Positions 1 through 59,576 of a stretch of 64,000 nt of DNA are shown here, piece after piece. The notes under the pieces were generated by a model, which made no database searches, was not told where the DNA came from, and saw nothing but the letters and a program-made list of their open reading frames with translations. The DNA lies in the NCBI GenBank assembly GCA_002347155.1, contig DDXO01000113.1:1570-65569 (forward strand), read 5' to 3'. This DNA is from a candidate division WOR-3 bacterium UBA2258. Lineage in GTDB: Bacteria; Hydrothermota; Tepidihabitantia; Tepidihabitantales; Tepidihabitantaceae. The translations under genes and the position numbers were made by a program. The number at the start of each line of letters is the position of its first letter. Within the stretch, counting starts at the first letter, position 1.

Positions 1-663
1 AAAGGTTTTTGAGGACCATTGGTTCTCGTCGATGTCGAAACCAACGTGCGAAAACGCGTGAGCCAGTTCGTGCGCAAGCACGACCGCAGTGAGGTCTTCG
101 ATGTCAAAGCCCTCGTTGCGCGCGAGCAGCCCGATGCTCATCCAATATATCTCAATGCGGTGCTCGTCAATGTAGTATAGGCCGAGTGGGTCAACCGGAA
201 GAGCCATGATACGTTTGCCGATATCGTGACCGCGGACAAGCGAGTAGAGCGCATACACGAGCTGCGTGACGCGATCCAGCTCATCCTTGGTGGCTGACGG
301 TGACTTCGGAGCCAGAAGCTGTGGGACCGACTTCCAGTGCTTCGCTATGAGGGTCAGTCCCTGTCCGGTGTAGCGGAGCAAGCCTCGATGCAAGATGAAG
401 TCCCATAGTACCGGGTCGTCGATCCCGGCGATTAGTTTCTTCACTGCGGGTGGCAATCCATCAACGACCTTCACCTTAACCGAAGTCCGGGCGTCGTCGC
501 TACGGGCTAGCCATAACCCAGTCTCTGTGCGCATCGCCTGACGGGTGACTGCGTTCCATAGCTTGACCGTCTTCTTAACCTCATTCTTGACGCGTGGGCC
601 GAGTATGCGCTTGAGTAGATACTCCTCGCGCTGTTCTCTCCGTGTAGCGCCCAGATCACCCAT
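1..663 (-). CDS. hypothetical protein, N-terminal ~221 aa only (gene runs off the window start); HExxH motif (LAHELAHAF) suggests an ImmA/IrrE-like or other Zn-metallopeptidase fold
   Basis: My own translation of the reverse strand from the ATG at 663 (MGDLGATRREQREEYLLKRILGPRV...VLAHELAHAFSHVGFDIDENQWSSKT) reaches position 1 without a stop. It is absent from the supplied ORF track because it has no in-window stop. Confidence 0.35.
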   Translation of the reverse strand, partial: MGDLGATRREQREEYLLKRILGPRVKNEVKKTVKLWNAVTRQAMRTETGLWLARSDDARTSVKVKVVDGLPPAVKKLIAGIDDPVLWDFILHRGLLRYTGQGLTLIAKHWKSVPQLLAPKSPSATKDELDRVTQLVYALYSLVRGHDIGKRIMALPVDPLGLYYIDEHRIEIYWMSIGLLARNEGFDIEDLTAVVLAHELAHAFSHVGFDIDENQWSSKTF

Positions 664-904: not shown

Positions 905-3900
905 TCATTGGAACAGCAGACCGGCCCATTTGTAGACGCCTTTGCTGACGAGGTGGAAGCGCTCGCGGGGGACGTTGAGCTTGCCCCGGACATGCTTGGC
1001 TTTGTTCAGAGCGGCTTTGGCGAGGCCTTTCTTCTCCAGCTTGTCCCACGGCTCCGCAAAAGGGATGGCAGCGGGTACGGTTTCCTCGTCGACGACTGCC
1101 TTCAGCAGTGCCTCAAACCCGGCCCCGCTGGCTGACGTCGGCGCGACGGCCTCAAGAGCAGCCTGTATCCGCTTGTCGCGCCTGAGGAATTCGGCCCACG
1201 ACGAAAGGAACTCAGTGTGGCCCTTGGTCTTGTTCTCAAGGTACCACTCGGCTTTCTCCAGCAGCCACCAGTCAAAGGCGTCGGCCAGTTCCTGTTCGTA
1301 GGCGACCGGGCCGCATTCCCAGCGGTTCTTCACCTTCCACTGCTCGTCCCAGCGGCGCTTGTAGACCGGCTGCTCAATGCGGCGGATGTGCTCGTTGTCG
1401 CGGATGGCAGTCAGGCGCTCGCGCCAGAGGCGCTTGGACGGATCCGACAAAGCGGACGGAACCAGACTTATCGCGGAAGCGAAGTCGCCCTTTGCGGCCT
1501 GCCAGAGACGATACGGGCGGTCATCCTTGGCGAGCGGCTCGGGCGTGGCCGGAACCTGGGCGGCCGGGTGGTCTTCGGGCAGGAGGCCGTAGGCGGCGTA
1601 GACCAGCCAGTCCATTTCCTCCTGGAGGGCAATCATCTCGGAGCGCAGACGCTCTCGTTCGGCCACGACGCGGTCATAGGCCTGCTTCAGTTCCTCGGCC
1701 GTGCTGAACGGCTTGCCGACGACCGGATGCGGCTGCTCGTATCCGGGCAGAGATGAGTTCCACTCATGGTACGCCTCGCCCGGCTTCTCGAACAGCTTCT
1801 TCATCGCCAACGATGGCAGCTTCTGCCCCCGCTCCCAGCACTCCTCGGCCAGATCTGCCAGTCGCTTCGCCAGCGGATTCCACTCGCCCTTCAGCGCCTG
1901 CGCCACTTTCCCCGGCACTGGCAACTGCTCGACCTTGCCGCCCGCGAAGACATAGTAGGTATCCTTCTCAGGCTGCTCGGACTCCCGCTTGCTGAAGCAC
2001 ACCTGCTTGAGCCAGAACAGCGCGGCGGAGGAGTTGAGAAGGGCTGCGTGAAGTTGGAGGCTGCGCTCGTCGCCGCAGGACACGGGGATGACTGGGGTTG
2101 TCTGCGTGTAGACCCGAGCGCGTTGACTCACGGCGACGTGAATATGTGTGGTGATCTCCGGGACTACGAGCGTGGGAACTTGGCCACGGCGGGTGAAGCG
2201 GTAGTACTCGAACCAAGCCAGCCCGAAGTCCACCTGCGAAAGGCCGCCTAGCTGGGGGCGTTCGGACAGCAGTTTCCTCCATGGCGCAAGGAGAGCCGCG
2301 ACAGTCTTGGACAGCGATGGTTTCAGTTTCGTGTCGTATGGGAACAAGCACCAATGGTCTGAGTCCTGAGCGTAGTTACGAACCATGTCGCCCTCAGAAA
2401 ACAGCGAGAGGTTCCGTCCTTCCACGCCTGCGCGTCGCCAGAACGACGCCGGGTTGTCATAGAGCTCCCGAGCGCCAAAGATGACGTCGAAGCCCATGTG
2501 GTCCACTATGAACGAGCCCAGCAGTTCAGGCCCGGTGACCGCCGCCCGGGTCAGTTCTGCACCGGTCGTGAAGTTCATCGGCCAGACTAGAAACCGTCCT
2601 GCCTCCACGGTCGCCACTTGCACCGCACCATCGTCATAGCTCTGTTTATCGTGTTGCTGCTCTAAGATATGCCACAAAGCGGATTCCTCGGGGGGCGTTT
2701 GCAGGTCACCGCCGCCGGGGAGGATGGCGGCGACACGGACCGGCGTCTTCGGGTCAGACTTCTGGTTCGCGCCAAAGACAAGACAGGTGGGCGTCCCGTG
2801 ACCGGGGAACATCAGGCCGGAGCAGTCTATGACCTTCTGCAGATTCACCTTAGTGAAGAACTGTTCCACCAGCGGTTTGCCGAACTCCCGCTTGGCGAAG
2901 GCATTGGAGACGATGAAGCCAAGCTGGCCAGTAGGCCGGAGCAGGCTGAATGAGAGAGGGAAGAACGGGACAAGCAAGTGGTACTTGCCATAGCAGTACG
3001 GCTGCCAGCGTTCGCGGTAGAGCTCCCGTTTGTCGGGGTTGCGGGCGGTCACGAACGGCGGGTTGCCGACGAAGATGTCGAAACCGCCGACTGGGGCGGG
3101 CGAGGAGCGACGATTCTTCGCTTCGCTCAGAATGACAAGCTGCTCCGGGTAGAAGACCTGGGGGAAGTCTATTCGCCAGGCGAAGTTGAAGGGCGCGTCG
3201 AAACTCGCGCCTTCGAGCTTGCGGAGCTGTTGGACGAATGCGTGTCCGAGCGGCTTCTCCTCCAGTTGGTCGCGTTCCTTCTGCGCCGCCTTCACGCCTT
3301 TGAGAGCGTCATCGAGCTGGCGCGTTTCGTGGGCGATGCGCTGGCGACGGTCGGCATCAGACTTGCCTTCGCCGAACAGCCCTGCAGCTATTGAGTCCTT
3401 GCGGCGCAGAAGCTGAAGCTCGACGCCAATCACTGACTCGCTGACTTCCAGTCGCTTCTTCAGGATGTCCAGGCGCAGGTTGCGCTTCGCGTTCCACGAC
3501 TTCGCCTTGTGCAGGCGCTCGCCCAGGCGGTGGATGGCATCGAAGAGCTTCTGGTAGCGGTGTTCCTTTCCAGGCAGAATGACCACAGGCACGCCGCAGA
3601 TGTGGTCGTGCAGGCTGTCGCCGCGCTTGAAGTTCATCTCAAGGTTAGGCAGTTGCGAGATGTCTTTGAGCGCAGTCCTGAACTGCGTGGGACTGGCGCC
3701 AATCGGGTCAATGCCAAGGTCGTAGTCCACGACCAGCGACAGCCACAGTCGCAACATGCAGATTTCGATTGCCTGCTGCTGGATGTCCACGCCGAACAGG
3801 GCATTCTCGATGATGTCGGCCTTGGTCTCGTGCAGCCACCTGCTGCCCTGCTGGCGCAGCGGGTCAACGTAGCCGTTAGCCGCGGTCTGGGCAAGGCGGC

Positions 3901-5422
3901 GGAGGTTGGTGAGTTCGTGCAGCAGGCCAACCATGAACGCGCCCGAGCCAACCGCCGGGTCGCAGCAGCGCAGTGCTTTGACCAGTTCCAGTAGGCGCGT
4001 GCCTTCCTCGGGCGAGAGGCAAGACTTGAGCTTCTCCAGTTCTTCTCGGTCCAAGCCGTCGGATCCGTCCAATCCGACTAATCGCCGCAGGCGGCCGGGC
4101 CAGTCGTCACCGGTGAGCCGTGGCAGCAGCCACTGGTACAGGACTTCACGGCAGATGAAGTGGACTACTATGCGCGGCGTGTAGAACGAGCCGGTCTCCT
4201 TGCGTTTGTCCGGCGCAGTTGCGTCAGGGTCGGCGGATTCGGCGTGCAGCACGATGGACTCGAAGACCTTGCCGAGCATCTCCGGGTCAACCGCGACTTC
4301 CTGGTTTAGCGGCGTGTCTTCGCGCACCGTGAAGTTGAAGGCTTCCAGCAGTTCGTCAAAGACCTTCTCAAAGGTCGCGTTGCGCACCGGCAGCGGCGGG
4401 TTGTCCCTCTTGCGGCGCGGGGACGGCTCGAATTCGTCGTCGTTGAACAGGCCGCCGTTGAGGAACGGCACGTTGTCCCAGCGCACGAACGCCGAGCTAC
4501 CCGCGCTGCTCAGAGACCAGAAGAGCATGTCGAGGAAGTCCGCGTAGTAGCTGCATTCCTTCGGCCGGTTCCGGTGCGGCTCAAAGCCATCGAGCAGGAA
4601 GCCGCGGCGCTGGTCCAGCCAGCCGCGGTTCTGGACAAAGTAGAGGAAGATGAGTCGTTCAAGCAGGAGCTGCGCCTTGGAGTAGGCTTCGGGCGAATCG
4701 AGCTTGCCGAGTTTCTCAAGGTCGGCCTTGATGAGCTCCAGCGCGGCGTCGAACTGCTTGAAGAACTTGCGGGTAAGCGGTTCTTTGTCAAAGGCCGCGG
4801 CCCACTTCTTAACCCACTCGTCCTTGTCGGCTTCGTCTTCTGGCCAGGCCAAGTTGGGCAGGTTCTCGGTGACGGCCGTGCGCGACGGCTGGCCCGGGAC
4901 CCAGCCGAACGTCGCCAGCTTGGCATCGGCGACCTTACCTGTGCCGAAGGTATCCCGGAACATCGCGAAGACGTACTGCTTGTAGTTGTGCGTGCAGATG
5001 AAAAGGATGTTGCCGAGGTCCCACGAGGGCAGGTTGGCTTCCTTGCGCTTTCCGGCCACGAGCCGGCGCAGAATCGCGCGCAGAGGCGTGCCGAATCCGC
5101 GCGTCTCGAAGACCTTGGGCTCGTCGAACTCCAGCAGGAAGATGCCCCACGGCTGGTCGGCGCGCGGGCGCAGTAGGATTTCGTAGGCTTTGGCCTTGTG
5201 CCCGGTCTCGGGCATACCGAGCTCGTTTGCGCTCCACTCGTAGCCGACATCCTGTGGCTTGATGGGCTTGTCGCTGAGCGGCCAGCGCAGGCAGTCGCCC
5301 AGCAGGTCTGCAGCGAACGAGCGGAAGTCGCGGGCGTTGGCGAGGGCGGAAGCGAGGGACTCGGGGGAAGCCACAGGATTATCCGACGGATCGGTCGGAT
5401 CCGTCTGATGAGCGCGTGCCAC
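905..5422 (-). CDS. large gamma-class N6-adenine DNA methyltransferase of the MmeI / PglX / DrmMI (Type IIG-IIL-like) family, 1505 aa
   Basis: Family-typical helix ERLIFLYFVQNRGWL; motif X-like ETGSFYTPRIVV; motif I DPAVGSGAFMVG; motif IV FVGNPPFV. About 700 aa follow motif IV, covering the target-recognition region plus an extra C-terminal extension. A possible N-terminal D..EPK nuclease-like motif (FLLEFDEPK) is uncertain. Confidence 0.8.
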   Translation of the reverse strand: MARAHQTDPTDPSDNPVASPESLASALANARDFRSFAADLLGDCLRWPLSDKPIKPQDVGYEWSANELGMPETGHKAKAYEILLRPRADQPWGIFLLEFDEPKVFETRGFGTPLRAILRRLVAGKRKEANLPSWDLGNILFICTHNYKQYVFAMFRDTFGTGKVADAKLATFGWVPGQPSRTAVTENLPNLAWPEDEADKDEWVKKWAAAFDKEPLTRKFFKQFDAALELIKADLEKLGKLDSPEAYSKAQLLLERLIFLYFVQNRGWLDQRRGFLLDGFEPHRNRPKECSYYADFLDMLFWSLSSAGSSAFVRWDNVPFLNGGLFNDDEFEPSPRRKRDNPPLPVRNATFEKVFDELLEAFNFTVREDTPLNQEVAVDPEMLGKVFESIVLHAESADPDATAPDKRKETGSFYTPRIVVHFICREVLYQWLLPRLTGDDWPGRLRRLVGLDGSDGLDREELEKLKSCLSPEEGTRLLELVKALRCCDPAVGSGAFMVGLLHELTNLRRLAQTAANGYVDPLRQQGSRWLHETKADIIENALFGVDIQQQAIEICMLRLWLSLVVDYDLGIDPIGASPTQFRTALKDISQLPNLEMNFKRGDSLHDHICGVPVVILPGKEHRYQKLFDAIHRLGERLHKAKSWNAKRNLRLDILKKRLEVSESVIGVELQLLRRKDSIAAGLFGEGKSDADRRQRIAHETRQLDDALKGVKAAQKERDQLEEKPLGHAFVQQLRKLEGASFDAPFNFAWRIDFPQVFYPEQLVILSEAKNRRSSPAPVGGFDIFVGNPPFVTARNPDKRELYRERWQPYCYGKYHLLVPFFPLSFSLLRPTGQLGFIVSNAFAKREFGKPLVEQFFTKVNLQKVIDCSGLMFPGHGTPTCLVFGANQKSDPKTPVRVAAILPGGGDLQTPPEESALWHILEQQHDKQSYDDGAVQVATVEAGRFLVWPMNFTTGAELTRAAVTGPELLGSFIVDHMGFDVIFGARELYDNPASFWRRAGVEGRNLSLFSEGDMVRNYAQDSDHWCLFPYDTKLKPSLSKTVAALLAPWRKLLSERPQLGGLSQVDFGLAWFEYYRFTRRGQVPTLVVPEITTHIHVAVSQRARVYTQTTPVIPVSCGDERSLQLHAALLNSSAALFWLKQVCFSKRESEQPEKDTYYVFAGGKVEQLPVPGKVAQALKGEWNPLAKRLADLAEECWERGQKLPSLAMKKLFEKPGEAYHEWNSSLPGYEQPHPVVGKPFSTAEELKQAYDRVVAERERLRSEMIALQEEMDWLVYAAYGLLPEDHPAAQVPATPEPLAKDDRPYRLWQAAKGDFASAISLVPSALSDPSKRLWRERLTAIRDNEHIRRIEQPVYKRRWDEQWKVKNRWECGPVAYEQELADAFDWWLLEKAEWYLENKTKGHTEFLSSWAEFLRRDKRIQAALEAVAPTSASGAGFEALLKAVVDEETVPAAIPFAEPWDKLEKKGLAKAALNKAKHVRGKLNVPRERFHLVSKGVYKWAGLLFQ

Positions 5423-6158
5423 GGCATTGCGGGTAGCCGGTGCAGCCGAGGAATTGCTGGCCGGCGTGCGGACCTTTGCGGGCGGTGCGCAAGGTCATTG
5501 GCTTGCCGCAGAGCGGGCAGGGAGGAAGGCCGGAATCGGACCGATCAGACGGATCGGACTGATGTTTTGCGCGCTCGGCAATGCGGGCTGCGGCCAGTTG
5601 CTCGCTGTAGCCGCCCTCTTTCACAAAGCCGCGCTCAAGGGCGGCGGTCTGCCGGTCGAGCAGGTAGTTGGCCTGGTGAATCAGGCAGATGATGGCGTTG
5701 GCGACAACGGCGGGGTCGGCGGAGGCGAGCCAGCGGGAATAATCGGACGGAGCCGACCGATCGGACGGATCGGTCCGATGCTGAACACCCAGCGACCGGA
5801 CCTTGCGGGCCTCTGGGTCATCTTTGGCCCATTGGCGCAGGCCACGCTGGCGCAGGAAGTCCTCGTAGTCGAGCAGCAGTTCGTCGAGGCTGCCGCGGGC
5901 GACATTGACAAGCCGAAGCTCGGTCTGGCTTGACGTAGCGGAGGCGCGACTGCCCTCGGCGATGTTCTGCCGGCCGCTGCGTGCCGCCTGTACCATCTGG
6001 TCGTGCGTTCGCGACCGCTTGTCCACGAATCGCTCACAGAATCCCACGGTGGTATCGTAAATGATGGTGGCGACCTGGAATGACCGGAGCGCGCGGTAGC
6101 CGCCGCTGGGGCGAAGGCGCCGGGATCGGTCGAATCCGACGGATCGGTCAGGTTTCAC
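5379..6158 (-). CDS. chimeric ORF: four-helix-bundle protein (TIGR02436-like, 23S rRNA intervening-sequence protein family) fused in-frame to a topoisomerase-type C4 zinc ribbon; modules separated by palindromic repeats
   Basis: Four-helix-bundle signature QNIAEGSRAS...VARGSLDELLLDYEDFLRQRGL; Zn ribbon CPLCGKPMTLRTARKGPHAGQQFLGCTGYPQC. Repeat-encoded DPSDRS linkers lie between the modules. It overlaps the start of the methyltransferase gene. Confidence 0.5.
   Translation of the reverse strand: MKPDRSVGFDRSRRLRPSGGYRALRSFQVATIIYDTTVGFCERFVDKRSRTHDQMVQAARSGRQNIAEGSRASATSSQTELRLVNVARGSLDELLLDYEDFLRQRGLRQWAKDDPEARKVRSLGVQHRTDPSDRSAPSDYSRWLASADPAVVANAIICLIHQANYLLDRQTAALERGFVKEGGYSEQLAAARIAERAKHQSDPSDRSDSGLPPCPLCGKPMTLRTARKGPHAGQQFLGCTGYPQCRGTRSSDGSDRSVG
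5381..5410. repeat. GATCGG-rich palindromic short repeat, copy 1 (atccgacggatcggtcggatccgtctgatg)
   Basis: Shares the core CGGATCGGTC / ATCGGACGGATCGG with three other copies within 800 bp. Reads as DPSD/RIGRI peptides in both strands. Confidence 0.6.
5534..5564. repeat. GATCGG-rich palindromic short repeat, copy 2
   Basis: aatcggaccgatcagacggatcggactgatg. Confidence 0.6.
5741..5780. repeat. GATCGG-rich palindromic short repeat, copy 3
   Basis: aatcggacggagccgaccgatcggacggatcggtccgatg. Confidence 0.6.
6121..6155. repeat. GATCGG-rich palindromic short repeat, copy 4
   Basis: gatcggtcgaatccgacggatcggtcaggtttcac. Confidence 0.6.
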
Positions 6159-9100
6159 GCAACCTCCAGCCAGCAGACGAGCTCAGGCTTGATGGTCAGC
6201 GGCAGGCCACGATCACGCATCAGCTTGAGTACCTTGCCCTGCTCGATGGCCTCACGCTCGGGAGCGAGCTTCTTAACGCCGAGTCGCGCCTTGCGTTTCT
6301 CGCTCGGTTGGCACTGGATGGCAGGCCAGATCAGCTCTATGCCGTCGTGAACCTCGCCGGTATCACGTTCGCGGTAATACCAGCGCACCTCTGATGTCGC
6401 TTGTGCGATGTCGTTCCAGATGCGGTACGCACAGAAAACTCCCGGCTTGAGCTTCAACTCCCGCTTCCACTCCCGGCCGGAGAACACACGCTTGGGCAAG
6501 GTCGGAAGATTTGCGTACAGCTCGGGATGTTCGTGTTCGATTGCCTCCAGCGCAAGACGCAGCTTCTCTTCCGTGCTCTCGTGGCCTTCGTAGGCCTCGT
6601 TGAATTCCTTCAGCGTCATGTCAGGGTCGTCAGGCGTGAGCAGAGCACCTTCGATACCGAGGGCTGCGTTGATGCGCAGAACTTTGCCCGTAACCCGTTT
6701 GAAGAGTCCCAGAATGTCATCAAGGTCCTGGGGCGGCAGGAAGTTCCAGAAGAATATCTTGCGGTCAAGGAGCTTGGGCCGCTTGAGCCGTTTCTCGATT
6801 TCGGTGTCGAGCCGGCGGTCCACGCGGCCGATGCGCTGAATCAGGCGCACCGGGTTCCAGTGCATGTCGTAGTTGATGAGCAGCGAGGCGTCCTGAAGGT
6901 TCAGGCCCTCCGAGAGCACATCGGTCGAGACGAGAATGTCGATTGGCTGTTTCAGGTAGTCCTTCACCTGGCCGGGCTCGCAGTTGTAGTAGGGCGCGAA
7001 GCGACGTATGACTTCCTCGCGGTTCAGCTTGCGCGTTGAGTCGATTTCCTCGACGTTGGGCAGGTCGGCGACGTCGGCCAACTGCTGGCGCAAGTATCGT
7101 GCGGTGGCACGGAACTCGGTGAAGATGGCGACCTTGTGGCCACGGATGTCGGGCGCGTCCTCTTCCGGCTCGCCGGTGAGCAGGGCGAGGAGCTTCTGGA
7201 GTTTGTCATCCTTGGTGGGGTCCTCTTTGTCTTCGGCGGTATAGAACCGCTTCGCTATCTTGGCCAGGAACTCCAGCAGCAGGTTCATGTCTTCAACAAG
7301 GTCGGCCAGCAGCCGGTCCATATGGTGCTCGGCCGGGTCTATCCGCCGCGACTCGGGCAGGTCGTTTTCTTCCTCGTCCTCGTCGTAGCCGAGTTCCAGT
7401 CGCTCGCGCTGGTGGACCTTGATGCGCTTCCAGTACCGGTCATTGGCAGTAACCCAGCCGTCGAACTTTTCCGACGAATAGGCTTTGAGGAAGTCGGCCA
7501 TGTTGGCAAGCAAGTCCTCGACCGATGCTTCAAATGCCTTGTAGGAGCTTTCCAGTCGTTTCAGCAGCAGGGTCCGAATCAGGCCGACGACCTGCTTCTG
7601 CTCAAGCAGCTTCTTCTCGGCCTTCTCGCCCTTGCGATAGGCCTCGGTGCAGTAGAGCGCAAGGTTAAGGAAAGGGGTGTCGCGGTTAAAGGCCTGCTTG
7701 ACCTCGTCGTAGATGGAGGCGTAGACCTTCTTGAGCGAGTACTTCACCACGCGTGGCCGCTGGCGCACCGGGAACGCTGGTTCGTTGGCCCGGCCTTCCT
7801 CTGATGCCTTCACGTACTTGCGGCTGCGCTGGATGAGGACCGACTTGAATATCGGCTGTTCGGTGAGGAACTTCTCGACCGCGCGCAGGTCGGACCAGTC
7901 ACCTAACTGGATGGCATTCTCGAACTGCCGGTCGGGACCCGAGAACACACGGCGGTAGTCGTGGATTCCGATTCGGGCGAAATGGTCCTTCTCCGGCGCG
8001 AAGTAGTTGATGAGGTGATACAGGTCGAGCAGGCGGTTGTTCACGGGGGTTGCGGTGAGCTGGAAGATCTGCTTCTTCGGGTTACCCTCACGCAGCAGGC
8101 GCGTGAGCAGTATGCTACGATTGGACGACGGCGTACGGAAGTGGTGGGCCTCGTCGATTATCACGACGTCGGTATCGCGGCTCAGTTCGACGAGCTTGTC
8201 AGGAGGGACCGTGCTGTCGCGGCCGAAGTCAGTGTGGCGGCGGGTTGAGAACATCTGGCCGTACTCGGTGCGATAGATGTACTTCAGTAGCGGGTCGGGA
8301 TTCTTGTTCGACGGCTTCCAGTGCCGCTCCCAGACGCTCGCCTGGGCCGACTTCGGCACGATGAGCAGGACCCGCTTGCGGTCGTGGACGAAGCGCTCCA
8401 GGAGCATCAGGCCGATGTAGGTCTTGCCGAGGCCGACGCCATCGCAGACGAGCGCGCCACCCCATTGTTGCCCCATCTCGATTGCGGTGCGATAGCCGTC
8501 CTGCTGGTACTTGGAGAGCTTGGGCCAGACGCGGCTCTCGCGCTGCTCCCAGTCGGTGACTGGTGCTTCGCGGCCGGAGAGGAATTCGTACAGCGCCTTG
8601 GCGTAGACCTCGAATGGCGAGAACTCGCGGGTGTGGCGCTCTATTATTCGCAGTGCGTCTTCATTGAGCAGTTCGGTGTCGGCCTTCTCCCACATCGCGG
8701 CGAACCACTCAGCAAGGTCGTCTACGTGAGCGCGGTCAGTCGTAAGCAGGTTCAACTCGATGTTTGTCGAAAGCCCTGCGGCCGTGAAGTTGCTACTGCC
8801 AATGATTGCGAAGTCTACCGGGTTGGGCGGCACAGTGGTGAACACGTAGCTCTTGGCGTGGAACTTACCTCGGCTGTAGACGCGAGCCTCTATCTGATGG
8901 GAACCCAGCGCGGCTTTGACAGCCTCAATGCCAGTCAGCGAGTCGTCGCGTGACTTGGTGAGTTCCAGTGAGTCGTCGTTCTGTACGCGGAAGGCCTCCA
9001 CCAGTTCCAGTCGGGTCCGACGGCCGATGGCGTCGCCGAGCAGTATTCGTATCTTCCCAACCTTCTGCCACTCCCCATCGAGCGCGAGTAATGAACCTAG

Positions 9101-9217
9101 CTCAAAGAAACCGGTCGCGACGTCCAGGCTCTTTGTCGTTTGCGCTATCTGTTTGATTGCGTCGCACAGGGTGATTGACCCCTGATTGTCGATGATGTTG
9201 GGAAGCTTGCTGGCCAT
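6155..9217 (-). CDS. PLD-family (HKD) nuclease domain fused to SNF2-family helicase, 1020 aa
   Basis: N-terminal FHAKSYVF...[12 protein letters not shown] (single HKD-type PLD motif, Nuc/BfiI-like). Helicase motifs [12 protein letters not shown] (I), [10 protein letters not shown] (II), LTATP (III), and [36 protein letters not shown] (helicase C-terminal domain, motifs V-VI). Confidence 0.8.
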   Translation of the reverse strand: [1020 protein letters not shown]

Positions 9218-10124: not shown

Positions 10125-10751
10125 TTGCGTACAATTGTTCGCGCTATGAGAACAAAGCCGGCGGGTCCGGGTGAAATCCTCTTCGGTGTGGCCAGGCGGA
10201 GAGTATTGGCCCTGTTGTTCGGCCATACCGACGAGGCCTTTCACCTGCGCCAGGTGGTCCGCGAAACCGGTCTCAGTCCGGGCGGCGTGCACCGCGAGCT
10301 CGCGCAGTTGGTCGAGGCTGACCTCGTCACTCGAACCCAGCAGGGGCGACAGGTCTACTTCCAGGCCAACCCGGCGAGTCCGATATTCGCCGAGCTGAAG
10401 AGCCTGCTCGTGAAGACCGCCGGAGTCGCCGACGTGCTGCGCGAGACGCTCGCGCCGCTGGCCGCGAGTATCAGCATTGCGTTCGTGTACGGTTCGGTGG
10501 CGCGAGGCGAGGAGCGCCGCGCGAGCGACGTGGACCTGCTGGTCATCGGTGATGCGTCGTTTGCCGCAGTCACGCAAGCCCTGGCACCGGCACAGCGCAG
10601 GCTGAGCCGCGAGGTGAACCCGACAGTGTACACGCCGGATGAGTTCCGGCAGAAGCTGGCAGCAGGGCACCATTTTCTCCGCAGCGTGACAGCGCGTGAG
10701 AAGCTCTTCCTGTTCGGCAATGAGCACGACCTTAGACATTTGGGTAAGTAA
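10125..10751 (+). CDS. winged-HTH plus nucleotidyltransferase (MNT / KNTase-type) protein, putative antitoxin of an MNT-HEPN pair
   Basis: Nucleotidyltransferase motif YGSVARGEERRASDVDLLVIGD; N-terminal HTH-like region. Confidence 0.65.
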   Translation: MRTIVRAMRTKPAGPGEILFGVARRRVLALLFGHTDEAFHLRQVVRETGLSPGGVHRELAQLVEADLVTRTQQGRQVYFQANPASPIFAELKSLLVKTAGVADVLRETLAPLAASISIAFVYGSVARGEERRASDVDLLVIGDASFAAVTQALAPAQRRLSREVNPTVYTPDEFRQKLAAGHHFLRSVTAREKLFLFGNEHDLRHLGK

Positions 10752-11175
10752 CGGCTCGCTGCAGCGGCACACCTCCAGTCCGGAGGAAATCGCCGACCTG
10801 TTGTCCGTGGTCGAACGGGACATCGCAGCGGCGCAGACCCCGGGTCTGTCCGATGACTGGAAGCTGGCGATTGCATACAATGCCGCCCTTCAGGCCGCAA
10901 AGGCAGCGCTGGCCGCAGCCGGCTTCCGCGTGTCACCGAGTGAGAAGGGACACCACTATCGCCTCGTCGAGTCGCTGCGTTACACGGTCGAGGCGCCGGG
11001 CCGTGACGTGGACCTGTTGCAGCGGATGAAGAAGAAGCGGCATGTGAGCGACTATGAGGTCGCCGGCGCGGTATCGGAGCAGGAGGCCAGGGAGATGCAC
11101 GAGCTGGCACTCCGCATCCGCGAGCTGGTGGTCCACTGGCTGCGTGAGCACCGCTCGGACCTGCTGACGCCGTAG
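10720..11175 (+). CDS. HEPN-domain protein, putative toxin partner of the upstream MNT
   Basis: Overlaps the stop of the MNT gene. Candidate R-x5-H motif (RMKKKRH); typical size (~150 aa) and arrangement. The longer alternative start at 10696 is in the ORF track. Confidence 0.5.
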   Translation: MSTTLDIWVSNGSLQRHTSSPEEIADLLSVVERDIAAAQTPGLSDDWKLAIAYNAALQAAKAALAAAGFRVSPSEKGHHYRLVESLRYTVEAPGRDVDLLQRMKKKRHVSDYEVAGAVSEQEAREMHELALRIRELVVHWLREHRSDLLTP

Positions 11176-20102: not shown

Positions 20103-23100
20103 ATGGCGCAGCCTGCGAGGTTCCAGGTATCACAACTGGTCGCCGACCGTTTCCAAGTGCTTGACCGGCTCGGCGGCGGCGAATTCACGGAAACCTACAA
20201 GGTCACCGACACCGTCGCCAATCGGGTTCTTGCGCTGAAGACCCTGCGGACTGGCGCTCCCAAGTCGGCCGAGGCCCGACTCAATCGCGAATTCTACAGC
20301 CTGTCGCGCTTCTCACACCCGGGCATCGTCACGGCGCTTGACTACGGGTCAACGCCTGATGGACAGCCGTACTTCACCATGGAGTTCATCGAAGGGGTGC
20401 CGATCAATGTCTTCTTTGGGAAGGGCTTTCGTCCCGAACTGAAGACGGTCACGGTTCAACTGCTCGAAGCGCTGGCCCGCGTTCACGCGCAGGGCCTGAT
20501 TCACTGCGACCTCAAGCCGCAGAACATACTGGTGGCCGACAAAGACGGTTCCCTGCGGGCGAGGCTGATTGACTTCGGTTTTGCCGGTCAGCCGGCTCTC
20601 TCCGACGCGGACGCGGCGCGCGGGACATTGGGCTATGTCGCCCCGGAGGTACTCAAGGGCGTGGACACCGATGCCCGTGCCGACCTCTACTCGCTGGGCT
20701 TGGTGCTTTACGAGGTGATCGCCGGCCAGGGTCCGGGTAAGGACAGGGACCTTCGGAAGTGGCTCAGGATGCAGTATTTGTCTGAATTCAAGCCCCCCCG
20801 GGAGTTCGACGAGAATATCCCCGAGGACTTCGCGTCATTAGTGATGTCTCTGATACAGCGAGAGCCGGAGCGGCGGCCGCGCTCGGCCGCGGCAGTGATC
20901 GAGCAACTGACTCACCCCAAAGGTGAGCCGGCCGTCGAAATCGGGCCGCCCGAGTATTCCGTGGCACCGGGTTTTGTCGGTCGCGGTGATGAACTGGCCG
21001 GCCTCAAGGAGATGCTCGACAACGCGAGCAAAGGCAGGGCGGGCTCGGCCTGCGTCACGGGCGAGCGGGGAGTCGGCAAGAGCCGGCTGCTATCCGAGTT
21101 CAAGTTCATGGCGCAGCTCGAGGGCGCGACGATTCTCTCGTTCGAGCGCGCCTCGCTTGGAGCGAGACAGCCGTCGTTGGTCGAGATGATCCGCGGATAC
21201 CTCAGCACCTCCTCTGTCGCCGACATGCCGGCCGGCGACGAGAGCCGGGATGCAGCGCCGGGCGACAAGTATCGTCTGTTCGAGGCCGTGCTCCACGGCC
21301 TGAAGGAAATGAGCGCGTCGCCCCGGGTGCGGCACAGCCTCGTGTTGCTGGTTGACGACCTCGAGCTCTACGACTCGGACAGCCTCCAATTCCTTCGCTA
21401 CCTTGTTTTCGGTCTGAGCAACGAACGCCTTATGGTGCTCGTGGCCGGCGTAAGTGAAGCGCGGTTCTTGGACCTGGTTGCCGAGTTCGGCCGGACTGGC
21501 TGCTTCCAGCACTTCCAGTTGCCCCCGCTGGACCAGGCAGAGGTTACAGACCTGCTGGCATCGCTCGTCGACGAGATGCCGGGCACGGATGAGCTGGCCG
21601 AGTGGCTAACGCGCACTACCGGAGGGAATTCGCTCTTCGTGGTTGAGGCAATCCGGGCACTGATCGAAGGCGGAATCCTGTCCCGGCGGGGTAATCGCTG
21701 GACGCTGGTCCCGGGCGCACTGAATACCTACAAGACTCCGGAATCGGTGGCGGACGTACTGCGCCGGCGATTGGAAACCCTGGCCGCAATAGAGCTTGAG
21801 GTGCTCGAGGTCTCTGCAACCATAGCCGGGCCGTTTACGCTCGCGTTCCTGCGCGCGGTGGAGGAACAGCAGGATGAAGCGGCTCTGTCCGGCGCTGTCG
21901 GGAAGCTGAGGTCGCTGGGCCTGCTGCGCAGTCTCGTAATCGACGGCGAGGCGACCTTCGTGTTGTCGAGCAAGATGCTCGAAGCAGCGATCAACGAAGG
22001 GATGAGAGCTTCGGTCCGGCGCGAGAACCACCGCCGCGTCGCGCTGGTCATTGAAGCGCTCCATCCGGAGAAGACCGACCAACTGCTGTTCGACCTCGCG
22101 CACCATTACGCGCAGGCAGGCATTGAAGACCGCGCCTTCAACTACTCGTTGCAGGCCGGAACCCGAGCCCGCGAACGCCGGCTGAGCGAACAGGCACTCG
22201 GTTACTTCGAAACCGCGCTCGCGTTGGCGGCGCAGGCAGCAACGGCCCGAGAGAAGGTGGAACTGCACGAACGCGTCGGCGAATTGCGGGAGGCCACCGG
22301 GCGGTATCCCGAGGCGATTGACGCCTATACGCAGGGGATGGCAATAATCGCTGCCGACGCGGAACTCGCTCAGGACCAAGAGCTTTCATCCCGGTTCCGG
22401 CGCAGGGTGGGACTGGTGCAACAGAAGCAGGGTCACCACTATGAGGCCTTGGACAACTTCAACCAGGCGCTCCTGCTGCAGCCGGATAGAGGTGCGCCCG
22501 CATATATCGACACACTGAACGATATGGGTTGGTCGTACTACGCGCTCCGCGGTTACGGCCGGGCCGATCAACTGGTCTCCGCTGCCTTGCGACTGTCTGA
22601 GAATCTCAAGAACCGAACGCCGGCAGTCTACAGCCGATTGTCGGCCCGCTCGTTCTACCAGTTGAGCGTCCTCGCGTGGTCGCGGAGCGATCTGGTGCTG
22701 GCTCAGCAACTGGTTGAGCGCAGTCTCGAAATCTATGCGGGGATCGATGCGGAGCGCACCGCCGGCGAGGTCAGCCAGTTCCTTGCGACACTCTGGTGGA
22801 GTCGCGGCAACATTGCCAAAGCGAGGGACCAGTACCAACGGTGTCTGCCGGCGCAGCGGCGTTCGGGCGAGGTATACTCGCTGCTCCGTTCCCTGCAGGG
22901 TCTGGGAATCATATACCAGGCTGAATGCGAATGGGACAAGGCGTACAACTGCTTTGCCGAGGCGCTGAACCTGGCGGAGCGAATCGGCGACAACACGGCC
23001 ATCGCTGACCTCAACTCGAATCTCGGTACGATGAGCGAAGAACGTGGCGACTGGGACCAGGCTCTGGCGGCCTACCGCCGGGCGATTGAGCTGCGGCAGC

Positions 23101-25328
23101 AGGCACAGGCTGACCCCTACGGCCGAAACGTCGTCATGGCGAATCTGACCCAACTGCTCACCCGGCAGGGAGAAACGGCAGAGGCCGAGCGCTTGCTGGA
23201 GGAGATTCAGGCATTCGCGGGCCGGAACCCGACCTCGGATCTGGAATTCATGCTCGGCGTATGCCGTGTCCAGATCCTGCTTCGCACCGGGCGCCTCGAA
23301 GCCGCCCGGAACGCGGTTGCCCGGACGCTCCGGCTGGTCAGGCGCGAACGCGACCCGCGCAAACTCGCCCGGCTGCTCACCTTGGCCAGTGAACTGCGGC
23401 TGACGCAAGGGGAATTCGGCCGGGCTGCCGAGGACGCGCGCCGGGCACTGGTCTACCTCAGGGAGCAGGCGTCTTCCAGTGAGTATGCGGTCGCGCTGCG
23501 GTTTTCGGGGCTGGCCAAGTGCATGCTCGACCGCACCGACCGCGGGTTTCAGGAGATCCGCCGGAGTATCGAGCTGCTGAGGGAAACCGGCGTCCGGCAC
23601 GAATTGGCTCTCTCGCTCATGGCCTCGGCCCAGGCGCTCACCGGGTACGGCCGCCAGGAGATGACCCTCGACCTCAAGCTACCGCTTTCCTTCCGACCGG
23701 TTGCCGAACAGGACGTGGACGAGGCGCTGGCCAACCTCAAGGAGGCCCATGCGATCCTCCGCTCGATCGGGGCTCGCCCTGACGCGCAGCGGGCCGATGA
23801 GTTGATGGAGACGGTCAACCACGTATCCGCGACGTTGCGGCTGAAGGCGCGCGGCCGGGAGGAATACCTGGAGGTCTTCTACGAGATCAGCAAGCTCATC
23901 GGGCTGGGTCTGGAGAAGGAAGACTTTCTTGAGCACATCCTAGATTTGGTGATCGACGTCATCAAGGCCGAACGCGGGCTCCTTTTCCTCATGCAGCGCG
24001 GCAAGCTCGTGCCGGCGGCGGGACGGAACATCGACCATACTACGCTGGCAGATGCCACCGCGGTTTCCCGCTCGGTCTTGCGCAAAGTCAAAAGGGGCGA
24101 GACGGTCTTCAGCGCTGATGCACTGACGGATCCCCGTTTCAACAGCGCAAACAGCGTCATGCTCAATAAGATCCGTTCGCTGCTTTGCGTACCGCTCACG
24201 GTCGAGAAGCGCGTGGTGGGCACGATCTACGTCGACAGCCGGGTCACCGCGCATCTCTTTCTTGATGAGGACATGAATCTCCTCGTGTCCGTGGCAAACC
24301 TGTTGGCCGCCACTATCGACAAGTCGGCGGCGTTCAGGAAGCTGCAGGAGGAGATGTCCGTGCTGCGCGAGGATATGCTGGTGGACGCGGCCACCGGGTA
24401 CTTCATGGGCCGCTCCAAGGCGATGAAGGATGTGTACCGGGTGATTGACCGGATCGCCCCGTCCAACTGCACTGTGCTGCTGACCGGCGAAACCGGTACC
24501 GGCAAAGGTGTTCTGGCCCGGCTGATTCACGCGAAGAGCGAACGCCGCAGCCACGAATTCATGTCCATCAACTGCGGCGCTCTGCCCGAGAACCTGTTCG
24601 AGTCCGAACTGTTCGGCCACGCCCGGGGCGCCTTCACCGGCGCGGTCCGGGACAAAGACGGGCTGTTTGAGGCCGCTGTGGGAGGGACGGTCTTCCTGGA
24701 CGAGGTCAGCAACACGACGCTCGGCGTACAGGCTAAGTTGCTCCAGGTCCTCGACGAGAAGGTCGTGCGCCGGGTCGGCGAAACCCAACCGCGGAAGGTG
24801 GACGTACGGCTCGTCTGCGCGACAAACCGGGACCTTCGCCAGGACGTAAAAGCCGGGCGGTTCCGCGAGGACCTCTTCTACCGCGTGAACGGCGTGACTG
24901 TTAACGTCCCGGCATTGCGTGAGCGCTCCGGCGACATCGGGCTGCTCGCCGACTACTTCGTGAAGCGGTACGCTGGACAGATGAAAAAACCGGTAGACCG
25001 GTGCGAGGAAAGGGCGCTTGAGGTGCTTGCTAGCTACGCCTGGCCGGGCAATGTCCGCGAACTGCAGAATGTCATTGAACGCGCTGTCATCATGACCCAG
25101 AGTAACCGGATTGCCATTGATGACCTGGGAGCTCAGTTTGCCGGAATCGAAAGAATGACAGAAGTGCCTCGCGGCAAGCGCGAGCGATTCGAGCGCAGAG
25201 AAGTGGTCAACGCGCTGCGCGTCACCGGCGGGAACGTAAGCAAGGCAGCAGAGTTGCTGTCAGTTCACCGTCGGCAGTTCCAGCGACTGATGCAGCGCTT
25301 CGGAATAGACCGAACGAATCCCACCTAG
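20103..25328 (+). CDS. 1741-aa multidomain regulator: Ser/Thr protein kinase + STAND/AAA ATPase + TPR repeats + GAF + sigma-54 interaction (AAA+) domain + Fis-type HTH
   Basis: Kinase HCDLKPQNILV, DFGFA, GTLGYVAPE. Second P-loop GERGVGKSRLL. TPR-like repeats. GAF region. Sigma-54 activator motifs GETGTGKGVLARLIH, ESELFGHARGAFTGA, GTVFLDEV, CATNRDL. C-terminal HTH GNVSKAAELLSVHRRQFQRLM. Confidence 0.85.
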   Translation: MAQPARFQVSQLVADRFQVLDRLGGGEFTETYKVTDTVANRVLALKTLRTGAPKSAEARLNREFYSLSRFSHPGIVTALDYGSTPDGQPYFTMEFIEGVPINVFFGKGFRPELKTVTVQLLEALARVHAQGLIHCDLKPQNILVADKDGSLRARLIDFGFAGQPALSDADAARGTLGYVAPEVLKGVDTDARADLYSLGLVLYEVIAGQGPGKDRDLRKWLRMQYLSEFKPPREFDENIPEDFASLVMSLIQREPERRPRSAAAVIEQLTHPKGEPAVEIGPPEYSVAPGFVGRGDELAGLKEMLDNASKGRAGSACVTGERGVGKSRLLSEFKFMAQLEGATILSFERASLGARQPSLVEMIRGYLSTSSVADMPAGDESRDAAPGDKYRLFEAVLHGLKEMSASPRVRHSLVLLVDDLELYDSDSLQFLRYLVFGLSNERLMVLVAGVSEARFLDLVAEFGRTGCFQHFQLPPLDQAEVTDLLASLVDEMPGTDELAEWLTRTTGGNSLFVVEAIRALIEGGILSRRGNRWTLVPGALNTYKTPESVADVLRRRLETLAAIELEVLEVSATIAGPFTLAFLRAVEEQQDEAALSGAVGKLRSLGLLRSLVIDGEATFVLSSKMLEAAINEGMRASVRRENHRRVALVIEALHPEKTDQLLFDLAHHYAQAGIEDRAFNYSLQAGTRARERRLSEQALGYFETALALAAQAATAREKVELHERVGELREATGRYPEAIDAYTQGMAIIAADAELAQDQELSSRFRRRVGLVQQKQGHHYEALDNFNQALLLQPDRGAPAYIDTLNDMGWSYYALRGYGRADQLVSAALRLSENLKNRTPAVYSRLSARSFYQLSVLAWSRSDLVLAQQLVERSLEIYAGIDAERTAGEVSQFLATLWWSRGNIAKARDQYQRCLPAQRRSGEVYSLLRSLQGLGIIYQAECEWDKAYNCFAEALNLAERIGDNTAIADLNSNLGTMSEERGDWDQALAAYRRAIELRQQAQADPYGRNVVMANLTQLLTRQGETAEAERLLEEIQAFAGRNPTSDLEFMLGVCRVQILLRTGRLEAARNAVARTLRLVRRERDPRKLARLLTLASELRLTQGEFGRAAEDARRALVYLREQASSSEYAVALRFSGLAKCMLDRTDRGFQEIRRSIELLRETGVRHELALSLMASAQALTGYGRQEMTLDLKLPLSFRPVAEQDVDEALANLKEAHAILRSIGARPDAQRADELMETVNHVSATLRLKARGREEYLEVFYEISKLIGLGLEKEDFLEHILDLVIDVIKAERGLLFLMQRGKLVPAAGRNIDHTTLADATAVSRSVLRKVKRGETVFSADALTDPRFNSANSVMLNKIRSLLCVPLTVEKRVVGTIYVDSRVTAHLFLDEDMNLLVSVANLLAATIDKSAAFRKLQEEMSVLREDMLVDAATGYFMGRSKAMKDVYRVIDRIAPSNCTVLLTGETGTGKGVLARLIHAKSERRSHEFMSINCGALPENLFESELFGHARGAFTGAVRDKDGLFEAAVGGTVFLDEVSNTTLGVQAKLLQVLDEKVVRRVGETQPRKVDVRLVCATNRDLRQDVKAGRFREDLFYRVNGVTVNVPALRERSGDIGLLADYFVKRYAGQMKKPVDRCEERALEVLASYAWPGNVRELQNVIERAVIMTQSNRIAIDDLGAQFAGIERMTEVPRGKRERFERREVVNALRVTGGNVSKAAELLSVHRRQFQRLMQRFGIDRTNPT

Positions 25329-57925: not shown

Positions 57926-58105
57926 GGCTGCAGCCCCCGTCTTTTTTGCGCCGTGATGCGAGACTGAGCTTGACTCTCAGAGCCGCGGGTCTAGAATCGT
58001 CGCCGGCAGACTAGCGACCCTACAATTCGTTCCTTGTTGAATGCTGACGCGCCGTCGGCGTGTCGCCTTTTTGCCGCAGACGGGGGCATGCGCGAGAATG
58101 TGGGC

Positions 58106-58114
58106 GGTTTTGTG
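58106..58114 (-). promoter_or_regulatory. consensus DnaA box (TTATCCACA on the minus strand) 77 bp upstream of the dnaA start
   Basis: Perfect 9-mer tgtggataa on the plus strand. Confidence 0.5.
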
Positions 58115-58190
58115 GATAACCGGCTGGGCAGGTTTCTCGCTCGTTGTCGTAAAGGCTATTCAAACGTGGTTTTTCCGAAAGGGGCTGCAG

Positions 58191-59576
58191 ATGGGTGTGG
58201 CTGACAGCGACGTACGACCGCGCGTTGGGCACCAAGCCCTGCCCGACGCCGCAAGACTCTGGGCCGACATCCTCGACTATGTGAAGCCACGCGTAAGTCG
58301 TGAAGGCTTCGAAACTTGGCTTACACCAACGCGGGGCCGCGCCCTGTCGAACGGTGTCCTCGAGGTTGAGGTCCCTAACTCTTTCTTTGCCGATTGGCTG
58401 AGCCAGCACTACTCAGCCGAGGTCAGGGCTGCGCTTACGAGTGTTTCCCAGCAGGACGTCTCCGTTTCCTTCCGTCCGCGCGACGCGGCCGACACCGGCG
58501 TCCTGATCCGTCGTGCCCCGGTACGGCGGCCGGTCGTCAGACAGAACGGCTACCGGCTCCAGTCGCACCTTTCCTTCGAGAATTTCGTCGTGGGCGAGTC
58601 GAACCGTCTCGCTGTGGCTGCGGCTCGCAGCGTTGCCGAGCGGCCGGGCGCGAACTACAACCCGCTCTTCATATACGGCGGTGTCGGCTTGGGTAAAACC
58701 CACCTTGCCCAGGCGATCGGCAATCTCGCGCTGGCGAAGAAACCGGCTTTGAAGGTCTACTACACGGCTGCCGACGACCTGTTCCTTGAGCTCATCCAAG
58801 CCATTGAGAAGAACACCCGCCTCGAGTTCAAGGACAAGTACCGGTCTCTGGACCTGCTGCTGCTTGACGACGTCCACTACCTGGTCGGGAAGGAACGGCT
58901 ACAAGAGGAGGTCTTCTACATCTTCAACTCACTCCACGATGCTGGCAGCCAGATCGTCTTCACCAGCGACCGGCCACCGCAGGACATACCCGCGCTCGAA
59001 GGTAGGCTTGCCTCAAGGCTCGGCTCAGGCCTAGTCGTAGACATTCAGGCACCGGAGCTCGAGACGCGCATCGCCATTCTCAAACAGAAGGCCGCCATGG
59101 ACCATGCGGACCTGCCTGACGACGCCGCGTACTTCATTGCCGCCCGCGTCCGCACCAGTGTCCGTGCGCTCGAGGGTAGCTGGATACGTCTGCTTGCCCT
59201 CGCCTCGCTCGACGACCGACCCATCACCGTCGCCCTGGCCGAAGAGGCGCTCAGGGACCTCGTCAGGGAGGAAGAGCCGGTTGACCACAACCGCATCATA
59301 AAAGCCTGTGCCGACTACTTCGGGGTCACGCTTAAGGACATCACCAACGGTGGCCGGACCAAGCAATTAGCACTCGCCCGGCAGGTGGCGATGTACCTGC
59401 TGCGAGCCACACTGAGCCTCTCACTAAAGGAGATCGGCGGCCTCTTCGGAAACAAGGATCACACGACGGTGATGCATGCTGTTAAGCGAGTCGGTAACCT
59501 CAGGACCAGCGACCCTGTTTTCGCCTCGAGGCTTGAGAAGCTATCGAAGGGCATAAGCCGTGGGGAAACCGGTTGA
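58191..59576 (+). CDS. dnaA: chromosomal replication initiator protein DnaA
   Basis: N-terminal LWADILDYVKPRVSREGFETWLTP; Walker A GGVGLGKTHLAQAIGN; LLLDDVHYL; FTSDRPP; C-terminal DnaA-box-binding KQLALARQVAMYLLR...GNKDHTTVMHAVKRV. Start trimmed to the ATG at 58191. Confidence 0.9.
   Translation: MGVADSDVRPRVGHQALPDAARLWADILDYVKPRVSREGFETWLTPTRGRALSNGVLEVEVPNSFFADWLSQHYSAEVRAALTSVSQQDVSVSFRPRDAADTGVLIRRAPVRRPVVRQNGYRLQSHLSFENFVVGESNRLAVAAARSVAERPGANYNPLFIYGGVGLGKTHLAQAIGNLALAKKPALKVYYTAADDLFLELIQAIEKNTRLEFKDKYRSLDLLLLDDVHYLVGKERLQEEVFYIFNSLHDAGSQIVFTSDRPPQDIPALEGRLASRLGSGLVVDIQAPELETRIAILKQKAAMDHADLPDDAAYFIAARVRTSVRALEGSWIRLLALASLDDRPITVALAEEALRDLVREEEPVDHNRIIKACADYFGVTLKDITNGGRTKQLALARQVAMYLLRATLSLSLKEIGGLFGNKDHTTVMHAVKRVGNLRTSDPVFASRLEKLSKGISRGETG

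Follow-up and report, generated by a model that had tools for sequence, protein, structure and literature searches.

The subject of this analysis is a pair of genes near the start of a 64,000-nucleotide stretch of DNA (the window) from the candidate division WOR-3 bacterium UBA2258 (contig DDXO01000113.1), one encoding a phospholipase D (PLD) nuclease domain fused to a SWI2/SNF2 helicase and the other a large N6-adenine DNA methyltransferase (MTase). Together with a smaller gene between them they form three co-directional minus-strand open reading frames (ORFs) at window positions 905-9217, and ORF calls and translations place all three where they were first reported in a prediction made from the window sequence alone. 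That original prediction described a PLD-SNF2 helicase upstream of a MTase of the PglX/Eco57I family as a defence-like module of the restriction-modification (R-M) type, a description that the domains of the encoded proteins support. Judged from sequence, the gene pair, called the cassette below, is a real, conserved and probably functional defence module. Its features and those of the gene between are as follows.

Positions 6155-9217, minus strand: core gene 1, PLD(HKD)-SWI2/SNF2 helicase, the predicted nuclease-motor subunit (1020 amino acids, ATG start).
Positions 8690-9157, minus strand: PLD nuclease domain, amino acids 21-176, with a single HKD motif (H120, K122, GSSN 140-143, N152, E154), from Pfam and motif search.
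Positions 6815-8521, minus strand: SNF2 motor, amino acids 233-801, with Walker A GLGKT 262-266, DEAHH 355-359, TATP 388-391 and QRIGRVDR 794-801.
Positions 5379-6158, minus strand: facultative insert, a four-helix-bundle (TIGR02436), 4helix_suffix (TIGR04258) and Top1-type Zn-ribbon protein (259 amino acids).
Positions 905-5374, minus strand: core gene 2, gamma-class N6-adenine DNA MTase (1489 amino acids from GTG 5374).
Positions 4778-5365, minus strand: signature N-terminal alpha/beta domain of the MTase, ORF amino acids 20-215, common to all partner MTases.
Positions 4433-4777, minus strand: helical spacer, amino acids 216-330, containing ERLIFLYFVQNRGWL.
Positions 2738-3997, minus strand: MTase catalytic domain, amino acids 476-895, with motif I at nucleotides 3935-3961 and motif IV at nucleotides 3053-3064, from Pfam, motifs and alignment.
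Positions 1844-2737, minus strand: putative target-recognition region, amino acids ~896-1193, resembling the corresponding part of BREX-2 PglX in profile matches.
Positions 1067-1636, minus strand: C-terminal DUF7008, amino acids 1263-1452 (Pfam PF22654, 9.3e-18).

The gene boundaries had been described as overlapping. The helicase gene and the middle gene do overlap, by four nucleotides (GTGA); the apparent overlap of 44 nucleotides between the middle gene and the MTase gene is an artefact of taking the start of the longest ORF (5422, giving 1505 amino acids). In public gene calls the MTase begins at GTG 5374 (1489 amino acids), leaving a gap of four nucleotides past the stop of the middle gene. 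This start also explains why an exact-sequence look-up of the 1505-amino-acid ORF gave no match when that of the helicase protein succeeded. A scan of the locus for promoters and terminators gave background level only.

The two core proteins

The helicase is composed of the Pfam domains PLDc_2 (amino acids 21-176), SNF2-rel_dom/ResIII (233-410) and Helicase_C (691-801), and Pfam and motif search agree with the predicted combination of a single HKD and a complete SNF2 motif set; exactly one HKD-type motif (HAKSYVF...GSSN, amino acids 120-143) is present. Aligned with 24 homologues (49-78% identical), the protein shows no variation in the PLD and SNF2 motif residues. The best PADLOC model, "C3a139, HKD+Snf2" (PDLC01075, 7.7e-60), spans amino acids 7-898, nearly the whole protein, and is also the top match for the helicases of distant loci. 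The full-length profile match and the intact HKD and helicase motifs place the protein in this HKD-SWI2/SNF2 family, and the helicase has at least 4991 homologues at an expectation value (E) <=1e-20. The models for DrmD, BrxHII, DpdE, HmaA and RapA match the helicase core only, RapA weakly, and the NCBIfam DrmD models (NF038317/NF038318) cover just the C-terminal half, with 140 bits (cut-off 610) and 83 bits (cut-off 950). Among the PDB sequences, phmmer detected no closely related solved structure for the helicase or the MTase.

In the MTase, all the motifs first described were located: ERLIFLYFVQNRGWL at amino acids 255-269, motif I (DPAVGSGAF) at 488-496 and motif IV (NPPF) at 787-790, with a mostly helical insertion of ~290 amino acids separating motif I from motif IV. 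Pfam assigns Eco57I and the C-terminal DUF7008, MmeI_hel and MmeI_Mtase remaining under their cut-offs, and does not find Type_ISP_C in this protein. The PADLOC PglX model PDLC02529 matches at 1.6e-103, followed by partial Type IIG and DrmMI matches, and the BREX-2 PglX model NF033451 reaches 329.8 bits (3.4e-98), under its curated cut-off of 400; the best stretch for both PglX models pairs amino acids 779-1193 with profile positions 357-789. The catalytic residues of the MTase, like those of the PLD and SNF2 parts, are invariant. DUF7008 is strongly conserved in 45 MTase homologues, and MTases of this type form a sizeable subclass, with >100 clusters at about 50% identity.

The N-terminal ~200 amino acids of the MTase (ORF amino acids 20-215) match nearly all of the MTases that accompany related helicases, even those in which the remainder is unrecognisable. 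A word-indexed search with this domain alone returned five fragments and exhaustive phmmer was used instead, giving 442 cluster representatives at E<=1e-3, 221 of them at E<=1e-10; in these matches the domain is always N-terminal and the proteins, when complete, have ~1000-1500 amino acids. None of the PD-(D/E)xK catalytic residues is conserved in the alignment of the domain, and the window MTase has G137-N138 at the position of a family-consensus D-D. The prediction for the domain is a nuclease-like fold that has degenerated and serves to dock the helicase.

Conservation of the gene pair and insertions at its junction

A scan of one genome per species gave 80 loci, and ORFs were called and clustered into families in 81 related loci including the window contig, L001, a public 183-kb metagenome contig that records the helicase protein and is identical to the window. 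The loci come from about a dozen phyla, comprising Planctomycetota, Poribacteria, Bipolaricaulota, Acidobacteriota, Actinomycetota, Chloroflexota, Armatimonadota, Bacteroidota, Verrucomicrobiota, Nitrospirota and Pseudomonadota together with archaea, the latter represented by two metagenome-assembled genomes (Thermoplasmatales and Methanotrichaceae). A large MTase lies downstream of the helicase on the same strand in 73-74 of the 81 loci. Two ORF families dominate, the helicase itself (79 loci) and the large protein directly downstream (73 loci; median 1056 amino acids, maximum 1587), and the next commonest neighbour family occurs in six loci, so that no third gene is conserved near the pair. 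Seven loci lacked a tblastn match to the window MTase; six of these are contigs that end <1.4 kb from the helicase, and in the seventh, L036, clustering identified the partner. When the search was reversed, starting from homologues of the DUF7008-type MTase, an intact PLD-SNF2 gene preceded five of six, and a helicase remnant preceded the sixth. Synteny seen from both sides thus defines the core as a two-gene cassette, widespread in bacteria and present in the two archaeal genomes, and not the rare compaction into two or three genes that had first been proposed.

The search of the literature, with most subscription journals and REBASE outside its reach, turned up no paper in which this two-gene unit has a name or has been tested, in line with the first suggestion of an undescribed variant. 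The cassette is nevertheless undescribed only in part: HKD-SWI2/SNF2 ATPase fusions in bacterial R-M systems were noted by Aravind and colleagues from comparative genomics (PMC3417536), the C3a139 family appeared in a 2018 list solely for its proximity to type III CRISPR-cas cassettes (PMC6546367), and each of the two proteins is matched by a PADLOC model of its own.

In loci without an insert, a few bases typically separate the helicase stop from the MTase start, many gaps measuring 1-6 nucleotides, while in about a third of the loci the junction holds one or more unrelated genes (window 5375-6154, L005, L017, L018, L021, L026, L037, L051, L068, L070, L084, L087 and L092). Some of the inserts encode PIN, NYN, DUF5615, DUF4258, antidote, DUF3800 and YhcG-type nuclease proteins; others are an AAA ATPase with an S8 peptidase, Fic, an IS200-type transposase, and four tandem genes for proteins of ~265 amino acids without Pfam assignment. 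The 259-amino-acid ORF of the window is one more such insert. Family models agree with its description as a four-helix-bundle/Zn-ribbon protein and resolve it into a 23S_rRNA_IVP/TIGR02436 four-helix bundle, a TIGR04258 suffix domain and a Top1-type C4 zinc ribbon. Since L004, the closest relative, is the only other one of the 81 loci to contain it, it is read as a facultative passenger in an insertion hot spot, and the suggestion that it is a component of the system was rejected.

The specificity regions of the partner MTases vary. Among 52 full-length partners, 30 carry a Type ISP-like (Type_ISP_C-like) specificity domain, 14 a TaqI_C-like domain and two the window type with DUF7008. In the five partners scanned with Pfam, Type_ISP_C was matched at 1e-70 to 1e-81, and of the two scanned with PADLOC, L043 aligns with the C-terminal half of a Type ISP profile at 1e-53 and L064 at 3e-30; the relatives thereby support the hint of Type ISP likeness in the original prediction. 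The type of specificity domain does not track helicase identity, a pattern indicative of module swapping, which specificity determinants are expected to undergo. Two partner MTases (L064 7776-11777 and L083 13065-17615) carry an extra C-terminal Peptidase_S24 domain (LexA/UmuD-like) after the Type ISP-like specificity domain, which hints at self-cleavage or damage-linked control.

The suggested PADLOC profile check returned the HKD+Snf2 and PglX models for the window proteins, and Type IIG models for partner MTases as well: PDLC03610 matches both of the partners scanned at about 1e-210, and the "Type IIG restriction enzyme-methyltransferase" models match those of L043, L064 and L013 very strongly. 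Loci of the cassette have therefore probably been counted as stand-alone Type IIG enzymes, and defence censuses may include, under Type IIG, some two-subunit systems of which the helicase was ignored. A rival explanation is that the MTase is a self-sufficient Type IIG/IIL R-M enzyme and the PLD-SNF2 helicase an unrelated neighbour or a separate single-gene defence. The MTase does share the layout of these enzymes, a gamma-class N6-adenine MTase with motif I and NPPF followed by a specificity domain. Unlike MmeI, BpuSI and DrdV, however, it has no conserved nuclease residues in its N-terminal domain, where G137-N138 replaces the consensus D-D, and a separate nuclease-helicase partner is almost always at hand, as the same-strand adjacency in 73-74 of 81 loci and the five of six reverse look-ups indicate. 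This alternative, which the original prediction had itself raised, is highly improbable given the lack of a nuclease motif and the near-obligate synteny with the helicase.

Some side observations concern more distant or enlarged arrangements. Relatives of the helicase on plasmids are 25-30% identical, occur in other gene arrangements and have little bearing on this clade. One of them, 26% identical and located on an Enterococcus faecium plasmid (L090, NZ_CP092570.1), is annotated as a helicase-related protein and followed by DUF4391, a site-specific methyltransferase and a DEAD/DEAH helicase, an arrangement of helicase, DUF4391, Type III-like Mod and Res which indicates that methylases of several kinds serve as partners of the helicase superfamily. 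A pair of genes for a ~210-240-amino-acid protein and a ~355-amino-acid CBS-domain protein (L085 7528-9245, L086 5264-7080, L093 11551-13299) sits downstream of the DUF7008-type MTases P0220 and P0224, followed in L085 and L086 by a 1222-amino-acid UvrD/AAA_30-type helicase; the window has neither the pair nor such a helicase gene.

Relation to known systems and proposed mode of action

In its predicted function the cassette is most like a Type ISP enzyme, and gene for gene it is closest to the SNF2 and PglX-like pair of class 1 DISARM and ARMADA. Type ISP enzymes such as LlaGI and LlaBIII contain the same parts, namely a nuclease, a superfamily 2 (SF2) translocase, a gamma-class N6-adenine MTase and a single specificity domain. 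They do so in one polypeptide, whereas the cassette divides the parts between a nuclease-helicase gene and a MTase-specificity gene. The parts also differ in kind: a PLD/HKD nuclease takes the place of Mrr/PD-ExK, a SWI2/SNF2 motor that of the Type I-like helicase, and the specificity region of the window MTase is PglX(BREX-2)-like with DUF7008, not Type_ISP_C.

Class 1 DISARM likewise has a SNF2 helicase gene directly upstream of a large N6-adenine MTase gene, and the DrmD and DrmMI models match the window proteins in part. The cassette differs from it in that drmA, drmB (DUF1998) and a separate drmC are missing over 10 kb on each side, in the fusion of the PLD domain to the SNF2 protein, and in a helicase that falls below the DrmD equivalog cut-off. 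As the original prediction had noted, DrmA and DrmB are not visible, and the contig extended 10 kb past window position 1 shows no drmA, drmB or drmC, which excludes a standard DISARM just outside the window. In ARMADA, ArmA-ArmB is a BrxHII/RapA-like SNF2 helicase beside a PglX-like (YeeA-related) MTase; a YprA-like helicase bearing the nuclease is always included, and type II adds a GajB-like helicase (10.1101/2025.09.15.676423). By contrast, the cassette carries its nuclease on the SNF2 protein, and no YprA-like DEAD/DEAH helicase with a DUF1998-type module is found in the window, on L001 or as a conserved gene in the relatives.

The Type-2 BREX-related systems centred on DUF499 have a helicase of the same architecture, an N-terminal HKD endonuclease fused to Swi2/Snf2, paired with an N6 MTase, and R-M-like logic has been proposed for them, but they require a DUF499 ATPase and a DUF3780 protein (PMC12839542), both of which are absent from the cassette locus and not conserved in the relatives. 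PglX of BREX type 2/Pgl is the best-scoring named family for the catalytic-plus-specificity region of the MTase, although the score lies under the cut-off, pglW, pglY, pglZ, brxD and brxHI are lacking at the cassette, and the N-terminal domain is specific to helicase-linked MTases and so distinguishes the window protein from BREX PglX. For BREX of any type, the genes and Pfam domains listed for L001 include no PglZ phosphatase or BrxC/PglY ATPase, and neither do the window's large ORFs. Type III enzymes differ in having a beta-class Mod and a C-terminal PD-(D/E)xK nuclease, where the cassette has a gamma-class MTase of Eco57I type and an N-terminal PLD domain. A PLD nuclease driven by a SF2 helicase-like ATPase in a dimer or tetramer is also found in CglI/NgoAVII and SauUSI (PMC5737866, PMC5861437, PMC7913695).

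The reading preferred here, with a probability of roughly 0.6, is that the locus encodes a self-contained, two-subunit, ATP-dependent R-M-like defence enzyme, "split Type ISP-like" and kin of the DrmD-DrmMI and ArmA-ArmB pairs. It draws on the domain content and intact motifs of the two proteins, the near-obligate two-gene synteny, the lack of a third conserved gene and the swapping of specificity domains. In such an enzyme, the C-terminal specificity region of the MTase would read a short asymmetric DNA site, and the MTase would methylate a single adenine there, on one strand, thus marking the host DNA as self. Type IIL, Type ISP, Type III and BREX enzymes likewise methylate one strand of an asymmetric site. 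The PLD-SNF2 subunit would dock on the MTase, probably through the conserved N-terminal domain of ~200 amino acids, which may be likened to a degenerate copy of the Type IIG/IIL nuclease domain, and at an unmethylated site the SNF2 motor would translocate DNA using ATP. Because each polypeptide has one HKD motif and a working PLD active site takes two, cutting would depend on dimerisation or on an encounter between two complexes, and the expected outcome would be activity against phages. The four-helix-bundle/Zn-ribbon gene is, on this reading, an optional passenger in the insertion hot spot.

Single-HKD nucleases such as Nuc and BfiI are active as dimers. Precedents for the individual steps include SauUSI, a single-HKD nuclease whose active site is built from two subunits (PMC7913695), CglI, in which a SF2 ATPase drives a PLD nuclease (PMC5737866, PMC5861437), and the Type ISP enzymes, which cleave when two translocating molecules converge (PMC7049714).

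Several points weigh against this reading. The literature searched holds no experimental data for any member of the cassette. The SNF2 and PglX-like pair acts with further proteins in ARMADA, a system with experimentally demonstrated activity (10.1101/2025.09.15.676423), and in class 1 DISARM (10.1101/2021.12.28.474362), and ARMADA defence itself needs the MTase motif (10.1101/2025.09.15.676423), so that simple R-M logic may not apply. The window MTase has its best matches among BREX-type PglX proteins, which act without an obvious nuclease, its specificity region is not of the Type ISP type, and the reading assigns no role to DUF7008 or to the ~290-amino-acid insertion.

In a second explanation, the pair blocks phage replication in the manner of BREX, DISARM or ARMADA without simple cleavage, or is a sub-module that needs components encoded elsewhere in the genome. 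The affinity of the MTase to BREX-2 PglX fits it, as do a helicase core closest to SNF2 proteins of the DrmD/BrxHII/RapA type, the presence of the SNF2 and PglX-like pair as a shared module in class 1 DISARM and ARMADA, and the dependence of ARMADA defence on all four genes and the NPPW motif (10.1101/2025.09.15.676423). Yet both families are matched under their curated cut-offs (BREX-2 PglX 329.8 against 400 bits, DrmD 140 against 610), the 81 loci have no other gene conserved near the pair, neither the 64-kb window nor the extended contig contains such components, and the fused PLD domain with its invariant catalytic residues places an effector inside the pair itself. A replication block or a dependent sub-module is consequently considered unlikely.

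If the two-subunit R-M-like reading is true, the cassette would add a distinct architecture to those of ATP-dependent restriction enzymes, with a PLD nuclease and a SNF2 motor in one subunit and methylation and specificity in the other. It would also offer the simplest available setting in which to study the SNF2 and PglX-like pair of the poorly understood class 1 DISARM and ARMADA systems, and, for studying how SNF2 motors are targeted, a bacterial example whose activity could be read out simply as DNA cutting. A wider and more tentative proposal, for which the odds are put slightly short of even, is that the loci form an unnamed, widespread class of two-subunit ATP-dependent restriction systems, in which a Type IIG/ISP-like MTase whose nuclease has decayed to a docking domain recruits a PLD nuclease mounted on a SNF2 motor of the chromatin-remodeller type, and in which the junction of the two genes is a landing site for defence and toxin genes. 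The insertion hot spot could be mined for new defence genes.

Flanking genes, repeats and the rest of the window

Upstream of the helicase lie a nucleotidyltransferase/HEPN (MNT/HEPN) pair and unrelated genes; the pair occupies window positions 10125-10751 and 10696-11175 on the plus strand and has weak Pfam matches in public gene calls. Downstream of the MTase on L001 follow a 344-amino-acid gene, a BrnT toxin, a 66-amino-acid gene, a glycosyltransferase gene on the opposite strand and a SurA-like gene, with BrnT and the 66-amino-acid gene (L001 20056-20578) just beyond window position 1. Toxin-antitoxin-like pairs thus occupy both flanks of the cassette. None of the drmA/B/C, pglW/Y/Z, brxC, YprA or DUF499 genes was found within 10 kb on either side on L001 or elsewhere in the window. 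The 344-amino-acid gene is the HExxH gene that had been described as partial and as the only one downstream: it is indeed partial at window positions 1-663 (minus strand), is complete at L001 18555-19589 with the motif AHELAH, and has the further genes listed above beyond it. Its product has no Pfam or PADLOC match and no counterpart in any other sampled locus, and it was rejected as a component of the system for want of a family match and of conservation beside the cassette.

The context resembles a defence island, with MNT/HEPN upstream, BrnT downstream and, in relatives, toxin and defence genes inserted between the core genes, and it supports a role in defence. It also bears on a third explanation, that the cassette serves methylation-coupled DNA remodelling, repair or gene regulation. 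In its favour, some SNF2 proteins do housekeeping work, among them RapA, to which the helicase has a weak match, and the chromosomal region around the locus is otherwise of a housekeeping kind. A housekeeping module sits badly with the patchy distribution across phyla, which looks like horizontal spread, with swapped specificity domains, flanking toxin-antitoxin genes and embedded toxin or defence cargo, and with the conserved nuclease fusion, so that a role other than defence is judged very unlikely.

The middle gene of the window is associated with a 9-nucleotide-periodic repeat of the GATCGGWC type, which occurs in four clusters.

Positions 5371-5409, no strand assigned: repeat copy at the junction of the four-helix-bundle (Zn-ribbon) gene and the MTase gene.
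Positions 5534-5563, no strand assigned: repeat copy between the 4helix-suffix and Zn-ribbon modules.
Positions 5732-5779, no strand assigned: repeat copy between the four-helix-bundle core and the suffix domain.
Positions 6115-6153, no strand assigned: repeat copy at the junction of the helicase and four-helix-bundle genes, just past the helicase stop.

The pattern GATCGGWCNGATCGGWC has 15 matches at <=2 mismatches against 0.21 expected, 13 of them within these clusters. The repeat is partly palindromic, and the clusters flank the insert and part its three modules. In translation it gives (S/T)D(P/R/G)SDRS linkers, and the homologous protein of L004 has similar SDRSD-rich stretches.

Elsewhere in the window, the large ORFs belong to housekeeping genes, among them those for DnaA, HypF, a V-type ATPase subunit, sigma-54 activators and a radical SAM enzyme. 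A plus-strand ORF at positions 20103-25328 encodes a fusion of 1741 amino acids with Ser/Thr kinase, AAA_16, TPR, GAF and sigma-54 activator domains and a Fis-type helix-turn-helix. The DnaA gene lies at positions 58041-59576 on the plus strand and the cumulative GC skew peaks near 42 kb, which suggests that the window may lie near a replication landmark.

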